Shown here one piece after another: positions 6,655-57,971 of a stretch of 64,000 nucleotides of DNA. Location: contig CAIJYT010000092.1 of the NCBI GenBank assembly GCA_903824935.1, forward strand, positions 13,119 to 77,118. The letters run 5' to 3'. Both the position numbers and the translations under genes were made by a program. The notes beneath the pieces are model-generated. The model saw only the letters and a program-made list of their open reading frames with translations, had not been told where the DNA came from and searched no databases. This stretch comes from an uncultured Bacteroidales bacterium (lineage in GTDB: Bacteria; Bacteroidota; Bacteroidia; Bacteroidales; FEN-979). Every line of letters starts with the position of its first letter. Position 1 is the first letter of the stretch.

Positions 6655-7413
6655 ATGAAAAAGATCTCCTTTGTGCTCATTCTCTTTGTTGCGATTCCCT
6701 GCTTTATTCAGGCCCAGGAGAAATTCACCGATTACAGTGACTCTGTGCCCGACAATGTATTGTTTGAAAGGCAGTGGAGCCTGGGCGCCATGCTGCACTC
6801 CAACGGATGGGGCCTCAAATTCAGGAAAGGATATAACCTTACCGCCCTGAAGCAGTTTATGTGGGAGCTGGAATGGTCCACCTACAAATCGGCCAAGGAA
6901 GTGAAGGTGGTCAACCCGTATTACTCCGATTCCAGGCCTTTTATTTTCGGAAAACTGAATTATGTTTCCTTCCTGAGGGGAGGCGTGGGGGTTAACTACA
7001 TTTTTAACCGAAAGCCTTACTGGGGCGGCGTCCAGGTAAGCGGTTTGCTTTACGGAGGATTGAGTATCGGGATCACCAAACCTGCATATGTTTTTGTGGC
7101 TTATCCCACTATCGGGAATAATTATGAGCTGCGTGAGCAAAAGTATTCGGCCGATATCAACCCCGATTATATTTATGGGCGGGGATCATTCCTCGCAGGA
7201 ATACTGGAACTGAATTTCTTCCCCGGCCTGTACGCTAAAACCGGTTTGGATTTTGAATTCGGCAGCAAGAATAAAATGATTTCATCGCTGGAAGCAGGCG
7301 CCACGCTTGATTACAGCCCGATCGGCATCCCCATCATGGCCCTGAATCCGAAGCAGAATTTTTTTCTCACGGTATATGTGAGCGCGATGTTCGGGAAGAG
7401 GTACAACAGGTAG
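6655..7413 (+). CDS. Exported protein, probable outer-membrane beta-barrel of unknown function
   Basis: Signal peptide ending IQA; alternating aromatic/Gly beta-strand pattern; ends SAMFGKRYNR. Confidence 0.7.
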   Translation: MKKISFVLILFVAIPCFIQAQEKFTDYSDSVPDNVLFERQWSLGAMLHSNGWGLKFRKGYNLTALKQFMWELEWSTYKSAKEVKVVNPYYSDSRPFIFGKLNYVSFLRGGVGVNYIFNRKPYWGGVQVSGLLYGGLSIGITKPAYVFVAYPTIGNNYELREQKYSADINPDYIYGRGSFLAGILELNFFPGLYAKTGLDFEFGSKNKMISSLEAGATLDYSPIGIPIMALNPKQNFFLTVYVSAMFGKRYNR

Positions 7414-7437
7414 TCGCTCGCACAGCGCACCGCCGCT

Positions 7438-7563
7438 ATCGCTTGCATATCTTATCGCCGCTACGGTGACAGCGGAGCGATGTGATGGTAGGCTCCTCAA
7501 GTTTATCCCAGGCTCCTCGCACCTGATACGGCTCATGTGATATGCTTCGCTTGAGATAATTTC
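7438..7563. repeat. Dispersed ~126-nt structured element, copy 1 (candidate ncRNA or MITE/REP-like element)
   Basis: Its reverse complement aligns almost without gaps to 14507-14633 (about 98/127 identities by hand); nested inverted segments. Confidence 0.75.
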
Positions 7564-8305
7564 ACACATGAAATGATATTTCTCCATGATTAAATATCCG
7601 GATCTTTCCATCTTGGGTCATTATGAGCAAACGGCCCAGGTCGTCAACACTTTTTATCCGCCCGGTGAATAAGGAAGAACCGGATGTAAATTCAAGGTCG
7701 CTCCCATATCCGAAGAGAGAAGAATTATAATCATTATTGATTGAATTGAATTCGCCCCGGATCAGCCTGGAATATTCCAGGTCGAGGTTTTGACAGGTAC
7801 TTTCAAGGAATTTTTCATTTTCGTGATCGAGGCCGGTAAGTTGTTTCAATGATACCGGGTTTGGGAGGTTTGTCGGGAATTCCTGCTGGTTCAGGTTAAC
7901 GCCGATACCGATAATTGAATGCTTCAGGGAATTGCCCATGATGGTGTGCTCGATCAGTATCCCGGCAATTTTCCGGATCCCGGCGTAAATGTCGTTGGGC
8001 CATTTGATGGAAGTTATAGTTTCAGACGAAAGAGACTGCTTCACCGAATTCATCACTGCCAGGGCGATGGCTTTGTTGAGGATGAACTGTTTGTGGGGCG
8101 GAAGAAATACCGGCTCAAGTACCAGGCTGAATGTCAGGTTCATACCAGCCTGCGAATGCCAGGTGTTCTCGCCCTGACCCCGCCCTGCATACTGTTCCCT
8201 GGCCATGATCACAGTACCTTCGCCGGCTTTTGACTCATCAATCATGCGGCGGACAAAGGCATTGGTGGAATCAACACGATCAATTACAGTTACTGAAAAC
8301 TTCAT
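7562..8305 (-). CDS. birA: Biotin-protein ligase (class I, no HTH)
   Basis: VDSTN, QYAGRGQ, KWPND, KIAGIL and GIGVN motifs. Confidence 0.93.
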   Translation of the reverse strand: MKFSVTVIDRVDSTNAFVRRMIDESKAGEGTVIMAREQYAGRGQGENTWHSQAGMNLTFSLVLEPVFLPPHKQFILNKAIALAVMNSVKQSLSSETITSIKWPNDIYAGIRKIAGILIEHTIMGNSLKHSIIGIGVNLNQQEFPTNLPNPVSLKQLTGLDHENEKFLESTCQNLDLEYSRLIRGEFNSINNDYNSSLFGYGSDLEFTSGSSLFTGRIKSVDDLGRLLIMTQDGKIRIFNHGEISFHV

Positions 8306-8392
8306 AATGCCGGAATTTCATCTGCAAACATAAATATAATTACAAAAGTGGTATCACTTGTTGACATATGGCGGATTAAGTAAGAAAACATC

Positions 8393-13758: not shown

Positions 13759-14475
13759 ATGGCTAAACGCTGGGTGATCCCCGATATTCACGGTTGTTCA
13801 AAGACCCTTAAAAGCCTGGTCACGAACCTGATCAAAGCTAACAGGAATGATGAACTGTATTTTCTCGGGGACTATGTTGACCGCGGCCCCGATTCAAAAG
13901 GAGTTATCGATTTCATCAGGGGCCTCGAAAAAGACCAGTACAATGTGACTTGCCTCAAAGGGAACCATGAAGATTTCATGGTTGAACTCTGGGATGCCGA
14001 GAGCAAGGCAAAAAACACCTGGTGGCACAGGCTGGGCGACCGCAAGCACAAGGTATGGAACGAGATAGGGGGCAAGGCCACACTTGAAAGTTTCGGAGCC
14101 GAAAACATCCGCCAAGTGCCAGTGGAGTATATCGAATGGATGCGCAACCTCAAGTATTATGTGACTCTCGATAAATTCGTGCTGGTACATGCAGGGCTCA
14201 ACTTTAAAAATGAAGACCCCTTCGAGGACCAGAGGGCCATGCTCTGGCTGCGCGATTACGATATCAAGCCCGACAAGATCGGCAACCGCAAGATCATCCA
14301 CGGGCATGTGCCTGTGAATATGGAACTCATCATGCTGGCTGCAAAGAGCAGGATCTATAAATTCATCGACCTCGACAACGGCCCCTATATCTCAGGTAAA
14401 GACGGCTTCGGGAACCTGGTTGCACTCGAGCTTGACAGCATGGAGATGGTTATTCAGAATAATCTCGATCTTTAA
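13759..14475 (+). CDS. Calcineurin-like metallophosphoesterase (PPP/PrpA-like Ser/Thr phosphatase)
   Basis: DIHG, GDYVDRG, GNHE, HAG and HGH motifs. Confidence 0.9.
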   Translation: MAKRWVIPDIHGCSKTLKSLVTNLIKANRNDELYFLGDYVDRGPDSKGVIDFIRGLEKDQYNVTCLKGNHEDFMVELWDAESKAKNTWWHRLGDRKHKVWNEIGGKATLESFGAENIRQVPVEYIEWMRNLKYYVTLDKFVLVHAGLNFKNEDPFEDQRAMLWLRDYDIKPDKIGNRKIIHGHVPVNMELIMLAAKSRIYKFIDLDNGPYISGKDGFGNLVALELDSMEMVIQNNLDL

Positions 14476-14477
14476 AA

Positions 14478-14644
14478 GTAGTGAAATAGCGAAGTAGCGA
14501 GGTAGCGAAATTGTCAGGAGCGAAGCATTCTACAAAAGCCGCATCAGGTGCGAGGAGCTTGTAAAATGCCAGATGAGCCTATCATTATATCGCTCCGTTG
14601 CCACCGTAGCGGCGTTGTAGAAATGCAATCGATTTCGCTACTTC
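14478..14644. repeat. TAGCGARR octamer inverted element enclosing structured-element copy 2
   Basis: Left arm tagtgaaa tagcgaag tagcgagg tagcgaaa (14479-14510); right arm tttcgctacttc (14633-14644) supplies the TAG stop of the 14638 gene. Confidence 0.85.
14507..14633. repeat. Dispersed ~127-nt structured element, copy 2
   Basis: Homologous to the reverse complement of 7438-7563; shared blocks agcgaagcat, atcaggtgcgaggagc, atcgctccg, caccgtagcggcg. Confidence 0.75.
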
Positions 14645-15939
14645 CCTATTCCACCTATCGCAGCTTTCAGGCTCTCCTCAACAGGTAAATAGTTAAAGTG
14701 GGCCCAGAATTCTTCGTCGGCGGGGCCGGCAAGCTGGTCCCAGCGCTGAGCTGCACCCGTTGCTTTATCTCCTTTGAAACTCCCGACCTTTTCCGGCGCC
14801 CGGCTTACATCTGTCACAACCAGGTCATTTTTATATCCTATCATTATTTTTTTACCTGCGGATGGCTGGGTGAAGGTGATCCATTGTTCGTCGTGTATGG
14901 TGTTAAGATACCAGCAGCCATTTCGTTTTGAATAGATCATAGTCTTGTCAAACAATGGTAGTTCGGCTATCCATCCCGGAATCTTATTTATGGTGTAGGT
15001 CCTTTTACCCTTGTCTTTTTCAAACGCATCAAAACCCTTAAAACTCGGCTTCAGCCTGATCTTCATAAGAGCATACGAACTTCCATCAATGAACATCTCG
15101 CCTTTGAACCCCTTGATTTTATTATTCGCCTGGTCGAACCAGATATGGTAAATCTTTCCGCCTTCAGGGTTTGAAAGTTCTTGCATTTTATACGAATAAA
15201 ACCTGAAATATTTTTCGTCAAACAATGCGCCAGAATTGTTCTCCACCAGGTCTTCTGCAAAGATGCAGCCCAGGCAGCCTGCCATTTTGCCCACCTCTCC
15301 CATGGCATTGACAAGGTTGGTATCCGACACCACCCTGCCCTTTACCAGCTGCGTCTTATTTGACTGCCCGGCTGTAAGCTCAACATCCCTAATTGAATGC
15401 TGGTGGGAATAACCCGTCTTAAGATCCACAATGATAGCCTCAGAATATTCTGCAAGCTTTTTGCCGGTGTACTTCTGTGAACGGTAGAATGCCGTCAGCA
15501 ATAAGGAATCCTTACCATAATTCAGGGGAATGTTGCTGAACATCCTTCTCATCACCTCTTCGGGGGTCAGAGCGACAACCTCAACTTCCTTAAGGCTGAC
15601 TTCTTTCGGCTTCAGGCTGATCTCAGTAATCTTACCGGCAATCTCGCTAAGAGCCAGCTTTATCGTTTCATACCCCAGGTACGATACGACAAGTGTATCC
15701 TTAAGCCTGCCTTCAGGGATGACAAGGAAAAATTGTCCGTCGTCATTGGTGACTGTGCCTGTCGTGGAATTGTTGATAGCCATCTGCGCAAATGGCAGGG
15801 GGCTTCCATTCACTGCATCTGTAACACGGCCGGAGATAACGTTTGTGATCTGTGCTGCAGCATCAACTCCGCGAAACTGCAGGATGAACAAAAGCCCGGC
15901 AAGAAAAGCATAACGAAACGGTGTTCTGCAGGAAATCAT
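14638..15939 (-). CDS. Exported protein with N-terminal carboxypeptidase-regulatory-like domain
   Basis: Signal peptide; ISGRVTD...PLPFA...GTVTNDDGQF...SYLGY...LKEVEV pattern. Confidence 0.8.
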   Translation of the reverse strand: MISCRTPFRYAFLAGLLFILQFRGVDAAAQITNVISGRVTDAVNGSPLPFAQMAINNSTTGTVTNDDGQFFLVIPEGRLKDTLVVSYLGYETIKLALSEIAGKITEISLKPKEVSLKEVEVVALTPEEVMRRMFSNIPLNYGKDSLLLTAFYRSQKYTGKKLAEYSEAIIVDLKTGYSHQHSIRDVELTAGQSNKTQLVKGRVVSDTNLVNAMGEVGKMAGCLGCIFAEDLVENNSGALFDEKYFRFYSYKMQELSNPEGGKIYHIWFDQANNKIKGFKGEMFIDGSSYALMKIRLKPSFKGFDAFEKDKGKRTYTINKIPGWIAELPLFDKTMIYSKRNGCWYLNTIHDEQWITFTQPSAGKKIMIGYKNDLVVTDVSRAPEKVGSFKGDKATGAAQRWDQLAGPADEEFWAHFNYLPVEESLKAAIGGIGK

Positions 15940-22917: not shown

Positions 22918-23001
22918 AAGTAGCGAAGTAGCGAGGTAGCGAAGTAGCGAAAATGTAAAACCATAATTTCGCTATTTCGCCTTTTCGCTATTTCGCTATT
23001 T
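22918..23001. repeat. TAGCGARR octamer inverted element
   Basis: 4 forward units (22918-22953), 12-nt AT-rich spacer, 4 reverse units (22966-23001); encodes the last residues and stop (IAK*) of the 1233-aa gene. Confidence 0.9.
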
Positions 23002-26731: not shown

Positions 26732-26793
26732 ATGTACGATGTACGATGTACGAATTATATTTCGCTACTTCGCTACCTCGCTATTTCGCTACT
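26732..26793. repeat. Mixed-arm element: ATGTACG x3 followed by TTCGCTAY x4
   Basis: atgtacg atgtacg atgtacg (26732-26752), then ttcgctac ttcgctac ctcgctat ttcgctac (26761-26792). Confidence 0.85.
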
Positions 26794-28609: not shown

Positions 28610-28692
28610 AAGTAGCGAGGTAGCGAGGTAGCGAAGTAGCGAAATTTTATTATTTGTTTTCGCTATTTCGCTATTTCGCCATTTCGCTATTT
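28610..28692. repeat. TAGCGARR octamer inverted element
   Basis: 4 forward units (28610-28645), AT-rich spacer, 4 reverse units (28657-28692) abutting the HydC-like stop. Confidence 0.9.
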
Positions 28693-48022: not shown

Positions 48023-48355
48023 CTAGTAGGTCATTATCTCCATGAGCCCCTGCCTGAGCCTGGAAAGCATGGCGGGACTGATTTCACCGAGCTTCCTGAT
48101 GAAACGGGATGCTGTAATGGTCCGAACCTGAAAAGTGAGTATCTCAGAATCCTTTTCCAGTCCAGATTCCTTGCCCTTCTCAATAATCACACAACCTGCA
48201 AATCCTTTAATCTTCGAAGTCAGGGGGCAAACAATGCCTATGCCAAGGTGATCGTTCATTGCATTTCCGCTGATGATAACCACCGGACGTATCCCGCTCT
48301 GCTCACTTCCTTTCACCGGGTTAAGGTCGGCCAGCCAGATTTCCCTTTGTCTCAT
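48023..48355 (-). CDS. mazF: MazF/PemK family toxin
   Basis: IWLADLNPVKGSEQSGIRPVVIIS, VCPLTS and QVRTI motifs. Confidence 0.92.
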   Translation of the reverse strand: MRQREIWLADLNPVKGSEQSGIRPVVIISGNAMNDHLGIGIVCPLTSKIKGFAGCVIIEKGKESGLEKDSEILTFQVRTITASRFIRKLGEISPAMLSRLRQGLMEIMTY

Positions 48356-48594
48356 TCGTCTCCAAGCATTTTCAGGTAATCTTCCATCCCCTCCTCCGCC
48401 ATACTGAGCATCTCCTCATCTCCGGCTGCTTTTTTGAACGACCGAATATATTCTGCTTTTTTCAGATGCCCCAGGTAATTCCTCAAAGCATTCTCCAACA
48501 GTTTGTTTTTGGGCATTTTAAGCTTTCTCGCATAGAATTCCAGCAGATCCCAGACATCATCTGGCAAAGTACTTGTATAAGTAACCGGCTTCAT
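48352..48594 (-). CDS. Ribbon-helix-helix antitoxin
   Basis: 80 aa; TYTSTLP..L...A..LKMPKN.L...AL RHH pattern; acidic tail; ATGA overlap with the toxin gene. Confidence 0.82.
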
Positions 48595-48676
48595 AACACC
48601 AATATTTTTTACAAATATAATTTATAAATACCAATTTTTATTTAAATTCCTTACTTTTGTCCTAAATCTTCCATTT

Positions 48677-49636
48677 ATGCAAAACGTGCTTACGAAAACC
48701 AGCTTCAGTTTCCCGGGACAGAAATCCTTGTATAAAGGGAAAGTCAGGGATGTGTACAATATAGACAATAAATACCTTGTGATGGTGGCCAGCGACAGGA
48801 TCTCAGCTTTCGATGTTGTGCTCCCGAAAGGCATTCCATATAAGGGGCAGGTGCTGAACCAGATTGCATCCAAGTTCCTCGATGCCATGGCCGATATTTG
48901 CCCGAACTGGAAAATCTCCAGTCCTGATCCTAACGTGACTATCGGCAGGTTCTGTAAGATATATCCTGTTGAGATGATCATACGAGGATATCTTACCGGC
49001 AGTTCCTGGCGCACCTATCAAAAGGGAGCAAGGCTGATCTGCGGTGTACCGGTCCCCGACGGGATGAAGGAACACCAGAGGTTCCCCGTACCAATCATCA
49101 CGCCCACCACCAAAGCGGCTGCCGGCCATGATGAGGACATCACCGAAGAAGAACTGCTTGCAAAAGGGATCATCCCTAAGGAAGAATACGAACTGATCAA
49201 GAAATACACTTACGCCATCTTCAAAAGGGGAACGGAGATCGCTGCAAAACACGGACTCATCCTGGTCGATACAAAATATGAATTCGGTAAGGGTGACGAC
49301 GGGAAAATCTATCTCTGCGACGAGATACATACCCCCGATTCTTCACGGTATTTTTACCTCGATGGGTACGAGGAAAGGCAGGCCAAAGGCGAACAGCAGA
49401 GGCAGCTTTCCAAGGAATTCGTAAGGGAGTGGCTCATGGCAAACAATTTTATGGGTAACAAAGGACAAACGGTTCCCGACATGCCCGATTCTTTTGTCAA
49501 CGAGATCACCGAACGCTATATCGAACTTTACGAGAGGATCACCGGTGATACCTTTGTACGCTCCGACACTTCCGCAATGGAGAAACGGATCGAGGCTAAT
49601 ATACTGTCCTTTTTAAGTAGCGAAATAGCGAAGTAG
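48677..49636 (+). CDS. purC: SAICAR synthetase
   Basis: [25 protein letters not shown] and [10 protein letters not shown] motifs. Confidence 0.97.
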
Positions 49637-49747
49637 CGAAAAGCAAAATTGCATCAAATAAAATTTTCACTTATTCAATTGAATTAAAGGCAAAAAGATG
49701 ATTCAAAACTATTTCACCATTTCGCCATTTCGCTATTTCGCTATTTC
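49615..49747. repeat. TAGCGARR octamer inverted element with ~60-nt AT-rich spacer
   Basis: Left arm 49615-49648 encodes the purC terminus SEIAK*; right arm 49709-49747 ends 3 nt before the next ATG. Confidence 0.85.
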
Positions 49748-57883: not shown

Positions 57884-57971
57884 GTAGCGAAATAGTGAAA
57901 TAGCGAAATAGCGAAATAAAGTATAAAGCGGTCTATGTATTTTCGCTACTTCGCTACCTAGCTACTTCGCT
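57882..57971. repeat. TAGCGARR octamer inverted element
   Basis: 4 forward units starting at the receptor stop, ~21-nt spacer, then 4 reverse units; between convergent genes. Confidence 0.88.

Follow-up and report, generated by a model that had tools for sequence, protein, structure and literature searches.

The two hairpin copies in the window (the whole 64,000-nt stretch of DNA analysed here, from an uncultured Bacteroidales bacterium) belong to a genus-wide, non-coding fold-back repeat that is probably a non-autonomous mobile element, handled as single-stranded DNA and targeted to the tips of hairpins. The repeat is real and is of the non-autonomous hairpin-repeat kind; its single-stranded substrate and its enzyme are what we infer. 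The family records its own history: nested arms and orthologous sites show new copies taking the place of hairpin tips. Because complete copies replace the tips of older ones, we regard the repeat as a probable small selfish element that moves in single-stranded DNA form. The first-pass annotation had set two readings side by side, a structured RNA and a palindromic non-autonomous mobile element. Many copies, sites that are empty or differently filled in relatives, fixed ends and nested insertion support the latter, whereas the former is weakened by an orientation unrelated to transcription and by short variants with DNA-type GNA triloops.

The first-pass annotation had aligned the reverse complement of 7438-7563 with 14507-14633, and the alignment is reproduced exactly (98/127 identical, 77.165% over 127 columns, E 9e-21). 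The stems it listed are found in the sequence of both copies, which sit, as it said, in gaps between convergent genes; these genes are of housekeeping type. Both copies are real, but their true ends are those given in Table 1. Likewise, the GGAGC/GCTCC stem is present, but it characterizes one subfamily only: other copies have GGAGC...GCGAC instead, or their entire apical part is absent. A second GAGC in the loop had been proposed to act as a competing switch, which is not supported because that GAGC is missing in most subfamilies. Copy 2 alone folds better than its shuffles (z -4.0 as RNA, -3.4 as DNA) and copy 1 alone does not (z -1.1, RNA and DNA alike); it is the family, not single-copy folds, that lifts the evidence above chance. 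Indeed, the two copies first noticed are 2/48 near-full copies at 60 loci in the genome. Copy 2 occupies the tip of a host fold-back built from 8-nt words, and the stop codon (14638-14640) of the convergent gene falls within the inverted word. Gene ends vary among relatives at both sites (site 1, copy 1; site 2, copy 2), and the repeats therefore reshape C-termini. The window also encodes T9SS and TonB-type genes, which help to assign the genome to the Bacteroidales.

Table 1. Coordinates of the features (window positions unless a contig is named; G000, genome under study; R1, covariance model of the repeat)
Feature	Position	Strand	Remark
Copy 1, whole (5' leader, left arm, apical module, right arm)	7439..7558	-	R1 101 bits
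Copy 1, unpaired 7-nt 5' leader, conserved T first	7552..7558	-	
Copy 1, left arm	7520..7551	-	terminal GA mismatch motif, outer stem, 5-bp GC stem, ATCA loop strand, GGTG
Copy 1, variable loop, 33 nt, unstructured	7479..7511	-	from sequence; loop classes fold like shuffles
Copy 1, right arm	7439..7468	-	
Second, outer right arm at copy 1, remnant of an older copy	7414..7437	-	
Copy 2, whole	14512..14632	+	R1 118 bits
Copy 2, 5' leader	14512..14518	+	
Copy 2, left arm	14519..14550	+	
Copy 2, variable loop, 33 nt	14559..14591	+	
Copy 2, right arm	14602..14632	+	
Tandem 8-nt word array, left half of copy 2's host fold-back	14480..14511	+	
Inverted 8-nt word, right half of copy 2's host fold-back	14633..14641	-	overlaps stop codon of convergent gene
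Flanking gene, no Pfam/NCBIfam match	6655..7413	+	kept in 10/10 genus genomes
Flanking gene, biotin/lipoate protein ligase family (PF03099)	7562..8305	-	
Flanking gene, metallophosphoesterase (PF00149)	13759..14475	+	
Flanking gene with CarboxypepD_reg-like domain (PF13715)	14638..15939	-	
Tandem 8-nt/7-nt word arrays in the window	14480-14511, 22922-22997, 26759-26790, 28614-28688, 49619-49742, 57886-57917		
Promoter-like motif upstream of radC	8352-8379	+	
Y1/HUH gene	G000 C133:38678-39115 (L001)		further loci L143-L151, L367-L372

The element is about 120 nt long and folds back on itself. Its 5' part is an unpaired 7-nt leader that starts with T (at -7 in 42/48 copies carrying AGCGAAG) and is T-rich but otherwise weakly conserved. 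There follow, as read off the alignments, a 2-bp terminal stem (variants GC/GC, AT/AT and GG/CC) and tandem G.A mismatches. The outer stem further inward has 11 bp and is followed by a GC stem of 5 bp, a conserved 4x3 internal loop and a 3-4-bp helix that is capped by a replaceable apical module. The left and right arms differ in sequence, and each pairs only with the other. In its long form the module is an unstructured loop of 33 nt or about 40 nt; in its short form it is a stem of 5-13 nt, and 13 of 19 short variants finish in C-GNA-G loops, the other 6 having no triloop. C-GNA-G loops are a DNA mini-hairpin signature: GCGNAGC mini-hairpins are described as extraordinarily stable as DNA and considerably less so as RNA (PMC13037366). 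The triloops thus lean towards a DNA fold.

The pairing that the first-pass annotation described as conserved holds across the family. On 22 copies, 95.2% of cells are paired, which none of 500 shuffles matches. Such tests are inflated both by deriving the structure from the same alignment and by the relatedness of the copies, but in slid controls only 25-60% of cells are paired. Two-sided changes occur at 11 of 23 pairs on the same 22 copies (0/500 shuffles reach this), and the internal loops are conserved while the stems covary. At four outer-stem positions in 133 distinct copies, 489 of 532 pairs are Watson-Crick, 15 are G-T, 3 are A-C and 25 are other. The excess of G-T over A-C (15:3, p 0.008) marks one strand as the folded strand. 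Since this element strand also folds better as RNA (112/133 copies), the G-T bias cannot tell DNA from RNA. We detected no structure in the loops, with z values of 0.5, -0.2 and -0.2 for the loop classes (37/114 loops were unclassified by the pattern used). Searched against the genome at E<=1, loops gave 194 matches and reversed loops 108; a guide-like role was set aside, the best loop matches being scattered 16-17-mers. The non-coding nature claimed for the element is borne out, each frame being open in at most 34 of 114 long copies. Closed frames and loop lengths that spread across all three frames rule out a decayed coding gene.

An iterated profile found further copies, with 69 matches at E<1e-3 in the genome under study (G000; 3.63 Mb, 289 contigs) and 0 in the reversed genome; 48 copies are near full length. 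Arm profiles place the family at 60 loci on 36 of the 289 contigs, where 49.5 +/- 2.7 contigs would be expected (0/5000 simulations), and copies are also clustered in G002 and G008. In all three genomes a copy-rich region surrounds a single long, UvrC-sized GIY-YIG gene, a putative uvrC (G002 C24, G008 C4, G000 C28). As the same region is copy-rich in the three genomes, the clustering is regional and shared. This region is not the dnaA contig in any of them. Clustering at dnaA was rejected: dnaA contigs hold 0 copies in G000 and 1/43 in G002, with none listed for G008 and G009.

The covariance model R1 matches 10/10 other genomes of the genus, with at least 3-45 copies per genome among the 61 candidates scored in each; with 150 candidates scored, it gives 43 in G002, 47 in G008 and 17 in G009. 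Among 50 genomes from the family's other genera one is R1-positive, and G013 holds 2 copies of the repeat. A distant variant with other stem ends is found in G013 and on two metagenome contigs (L089, L268 and L312; R1 23-29 bits), and a long palindromic element of a different type directly adjoins it at L268:1830-2010. Across the order, a left-arm pattern gave at most 2 matches in each of 300 genomes versus 47 in G000 (its reversed control gives up to 3 per genome), and R1 had no match on the 29 left-arm loci retrieved. A wider spread in the phylum was rejected, as every match to an inner-module pattern (7/400 other genomes) lacked arms. Of five matches inspected outside Bacteroidota, four lacked a right arm. 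A phage or plasmid origin fared no better: two patterns had 0 matches in viral contigs, two looser patterns gave 15 and 9 matches lacking the partner arm or the outer stem, and BLAST against plasmids and phages found no repeat. The Rfam search suggested earlier gave 0 matches at gathering score for both window copies; among 12 other copies, it gave one sub-threshold match to mir-31 (28.6 versus 51 bits), lying on flanking word arrays. We found no published description of the repeat in a search that was thin in subscription journals; the 'atypical' Bacteroidetes hairpins (subclass 2.6) mentioned in PMC6006769 may bear on novelty.

Crude ORF calls place the 48 copies in 16 convergent, 25 co-directional and 7 divergent gaps. 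A gene 3' end faces 41 of the 48 copies as compared with 482 of 740 gaps, so that divergent gaps are avoided (p 0.0015). In co-directional gaps, 11 copies are sense and 14 antisense, an orientation that is random (p 0.69). By a crude per-contig skew we detected no leading- or lagging-strand bias (14/34, p 0.39); IS200/IS605 enzymes are described as favouring the lagging strand (PMC6006769).

Among the orthologous sites in relatives, empty as well as differently filled ones exist. The gene pair of site 1 is kept in 8/10 relatives: G006 has a copy of a different subfamily, five have unrelated 7-nt word arrays, one keeps remnants of 8-nt words, and in another the gap is longer and unrelated. By eye, the outer left arm in G006 is complementary to the outer right arm in G000, and both likely derive from one older copy. 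At site 2, the copy is reversed in two of 9 relatives and scrambled in one, a fourth keeps a terminal remnant, and the remaining five have word arrays only. A comparison of G000 with a close relative gave 18 rows, 14 of them comparable, with 11 sites occupied in both and 3 lacking a copy in G000. The relative carries a single simple copy at each of C219 and C206. G000 shares its outer arms there, but in place of the core it has one complete copy at C219 and two at C206. At C146 the two genomes have their arms in common and differ in the apical module, which looks more like gene conversion, and at C144 the core has been deleted between short direct repeats.

At the ends of the copies, direct repeats do not exceed their length in shuffled sequence (1.26 versus 1.59, n=27), indicating no target duplication. 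By contrast with their shuffles, the flanks are complementary to each other (3.19 versus 2.12, 0/1000 shuffles, n=27), and the copies therefore sit in the tips of older hairpins. In 17 arrays with at least two arms per side, nested pairing wins 15 times and crossed pairing never, with 2 ties. Because the inner pair matches by construction, we tested the second layer separately: its arm pairs average -13.6 kcal/mol, compared with -9.9 for random pairs (p about 1e-4) and -16.9 for own pairs; the two scripts used arm windows differing by one base. Host sites are older copies or 7/8-nt word fold-backs, and a word pair lies within 30 nt in 13 of the 56 loci that have a left arm. The T(-7) boundary stays fixed when an 8-nt word lies to its left as well as when a truncated left arm or an inverted right arm does. 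The cut points within the resident hairpin vary. Right arms form irregular tandem runs at L012 and L021, which show later duplication. An autonomous form, in which the arms would enclose a gene, was rejected: deletions, inversions or remnants account for the 12 partial loci of G000, and the left and right arms lying 4.6 kb apart at C144 have housekeeping genes between them. The comparison of sites shows both nested tip replacement and mobility.

The neighbours of the repeat do not reveal a mobilizer. The 101 ORFs (60-330 aa) that adjoin copies in relatives and metagenomes form 72 groups; representatives of 43 groups matched Pfam, none of them as a transposase, recombinase or reverse transcriptase, and those of the other 29 had no match. 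Reverse transcriptases over the Pfam cut-off are absent from the four genus genomes searched (G000, G002, G006, G008); a sub-cut-off fragment lies at a contig end in G000, and G013 has two. A Y1/HUH gene is present in 11/11 genus genomes, in single copy except for an extra IS200-like copy in G008. It is syntenic with its relatives, its HUH and Y---Q--H/HH motifs are intact, and synonymous changes exceed replacement changes in 9/9 comparisons, by which count it is under purifying selection. The protein resembles solved transposases, which we take to be those of the IS200/IS605 family. By motif, not by tree, it fits subclass 1.2, a group described as low-copy, generally without IS-type hairpins and found mostly in Cyanobacteria and Bacteroidetes (PMC6006769). 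Its REP_Tyr_transpos score is 28 against a cut-off of 80. None of 21 Y1 loci from 11 genomes has an arm, in draft assemblies that could miss a repeat-flanked gene. The extra copy in G008 has no arm nearby either, and multi-copy IS often drop out of such assemblies; this IS200-like tnpA (L096, G008 C14) is placed within another transposase-like frame. Orthologs of the Y1 gene are present in genera g8 and g12, where R1 finds no copy, and none was found in G013 despite its 2 copies. In g12, a second ORF with HUH-like motifs directly follows the Y1 gene.

A promoter-like motif (TATCACTTTT, 9-12 nt, GGATTAA; 25 sites in G000 versus 0 in the reversed genome) precedes the Y1 gene and the ssb, radC, YifB/comM-like, comF-like and topA genes. 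It also stands before DUF2851, ORF6N, YhcG/DUF1016, antitoxin-like and several small mobile-type genes, and in relatives it is common to several four-helix-bundle cassettes. This set is possibly an alternative-sigma DNA-uptake regulon of Bacteroidales.

These findings suggest how a round of insertion might proceed. One strand would fold as DNA, with its tandem G.A mismatches, 4x3 internal loop and GNA triloops, and be recognized by a protein. A host-encoded enzyme would then cut and rejoin the element as single-stranded DNA. The resident hairpin that receives the new copy, either an older copy or a fold-back of 7/8-nt words, would lose its tip. Each round would add one further pair of arms, and slippage between short direct repeats could later duplicate or delete arms. 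Alternatively, the old tip could be lost by a separate deletion following insertion. The best candidate for the enzyme would be the HUH/Y1 protein of subclass 1.2, encoded in single copy; it would act in trans, probably on induction of genes that handle single-stranded DNA. As the repeat's mobilizing enzyme this protein is a tentative candidate only. Somewhat more doubtful is the fuller picture of a hairpin-tip-replacing element, in which a subclass-1.2 HUH enzyme, domesticated and induced together with the DNA-uptake genes ssb/radC/comM/comF, would cut resident fold-backs and splice new single-stranded hairpins into them.

Nested arms and module swaps could also be by-products of processes that need no dedicated enzyme, with hairpins stalling replication or inviting recombination and template switching or gene conversion copying parts of the repeat. 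The shared arms and differing module at C146, the deletion at C144, the irregular runs of right arms, the lack of a mobilizer gene linked to the repeat and the re-use of sites by the two close relatives would all fit. This explanation is nevertheless unlikely, as homology alone does not predict a fixed T(-7) donor boundary across differing left neighbours, nor does it sit well with opposite-orientation copies at one orthologous site. Arm-templated correction, moreover, would be expected to erase the internal loops, which are conserved while the stems covary.

The strong covariation, the G-T over A-C bias and the enrichment of gene 3' ends beside copies would equally suit a structured RNA with a fold selected at the RNA level, either transcribed in its own right or spread through an RNA intermediate. 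Tandem G.A pairs occur in RNA as well. Such an RNA is improbable given an orientation independent of transcription, no Rfam match at gathering score, triloops instead of GNRA tetraloops in the short variants, the lack of a reverse transcriptase in the genomes searched and a single marginal, chance-level terminator-like match. The regional clustering, in turn, might reflect a DNA site selected by the host and spreading only secondarily, serving in priming, in gyrase or nucleoid-protein binding or as a transformation handle like NTS for SsnA. Mini-hairpins at single-stranded DNA priming sites (PMC13037366) would count in favour of such a role. We hold it to be very improbable: most orthologous sites have unrelated word arrays or nothing, so no position needs the repeat, and each of 5/5 genomes has one GIY-YIG match, in a frame of 605-624 aa, with no small Ssn-type gene.

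The preferred reading, a mobile element handled as single-stranded DNA, finds its closest parallel in REPINs/BIMEs and their RAYT (TnpA-REP) enzymes. Like these, as described in PMC3116915, PMC6006769 and PMC3733652, the repeat is extragenic and multi-copy, forms a long hairpin with a variable spacer, is scarce between divergent genes, has an unpaired 5' tail and occurs in tandem arm arrays; like REPINs it inserts into or beside existing copies (PMC3116915). Unlike REPINs, it does not consist of two inverted copies of one REP, as its arms differ, and it lacks a GTAG/GGAG or CGTC tag at the foot of the hairpin (a GTAG lies within the right arm, across an internal loop). Nor, in the genomes searched, is an enzyme gene flanked by the repeat as in RAYT systems, and the repeated replacement of resident tips with matched nested arms departs from REPINs as the cited work describes them. 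Since we found neither REP tag, nor twin-REP build, nor flanked RAYT gene, the repeat is REPIN-like in its working and not a REPIN member. The genus Y1 protein shares with subclass 1.2 TnpA-Y1 the DH[IV]H and Y---Q--H/HH motifs, a length of about 145 aa, a low copy number and the lack of flanking IS-type hairpins (PMC6006769). No REP is listed for this subclass in the table of that paper, and we propose a link between the protein and the repeat as a hypothesis.

Other known repeats share single features. The size, fold-back shape and position near gene ends recall ERIC (127 bp), Correia elements and other bacterial MITEs (PMC3184786). Yet the repeat is not a MITE, because it has no terminal inverted repeats (its ends are asymmetric, with G.A-mismatch pairing and a one-sided leader) and no target-site duplication. 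With the NTS/SRM (CGTC-type) repeats of Ssn GIY-YIG nucleases it shares oriented, clustered single-stranded DNA hairpins and possibly a tie to natural transformation (PMC11893778). It is not an Ssn/CGTC repeat, however: it is about four times longer than these, lacks the CGTC tag (PMC11893778, PMC3733652) and has no small single-domain GIY-YIG gene beside the one long match in each of the five genomes searched. Its host sites resemble the heptamer arrays of Cyanobacteria, Beggiatoaceae and Bacteroidetes (PMC4679880), being 7/8-nt word arrays that are often paired into fold-backs, whereas the repeat itself is a 120-nt structured insert within such arrays.

Given this layer-by-layer record, the mechanism of insertion can be tested directly using short oligonucleotides. 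If the enzyme proves to be the orphan Y1 protein, a protein subclass without a listed DNA partner gains a function, and the system points to a small, structure-guided cut-and-paste tool for single-stranded DNA. If the reading of a tip-replacing HUH enzyme is true, the repeat would be the first substrate of the orphan subclass-1.2 enzymes. The 7/8-nt fold-back arrays and the four-helix-bundle cassettes, which fill the intergenic DNA of Bacteroidota, might then also be products of this machinery. If Y1 is not the enzyme, what we describe is an apparently undescribed REPIN-like family in one uncultured genus, of modest general interest.

Arrays of 7/8-nt words are themselves abundant in G000 (233 array matches at 175 loci). 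Such short repeat arrays also go by the names STRR and SDR. They are often inverted pairs that form fold-backs, and the orthologous gaps of relatives carry other words. The word in G000 resembles the left end of the element, and the ends of the distant variant resemble another word. Four-helix-bundle genes (PF05635/TIGR02436) lie between inverted word arrays (G000 C183:1261-1551, L043; L217-L238); the flanking word differs by locus, the promoter-like motif is often inside, and each genome has one syntenic copy without arrays. A further dispersed repeat of about 60 nt, which begins with a GNA-triloop hairpin, adjoins word arrays on six G000 contigs (C106, C107, C49, C69, C95 and C166). In the window, finally, a small gene pair at 48023-48600 (minus strand) occupies the gap before a SAICAR synthetase gene; by resemblance, it is presumably a MazF/PemK-type toxin with its antitoxin.
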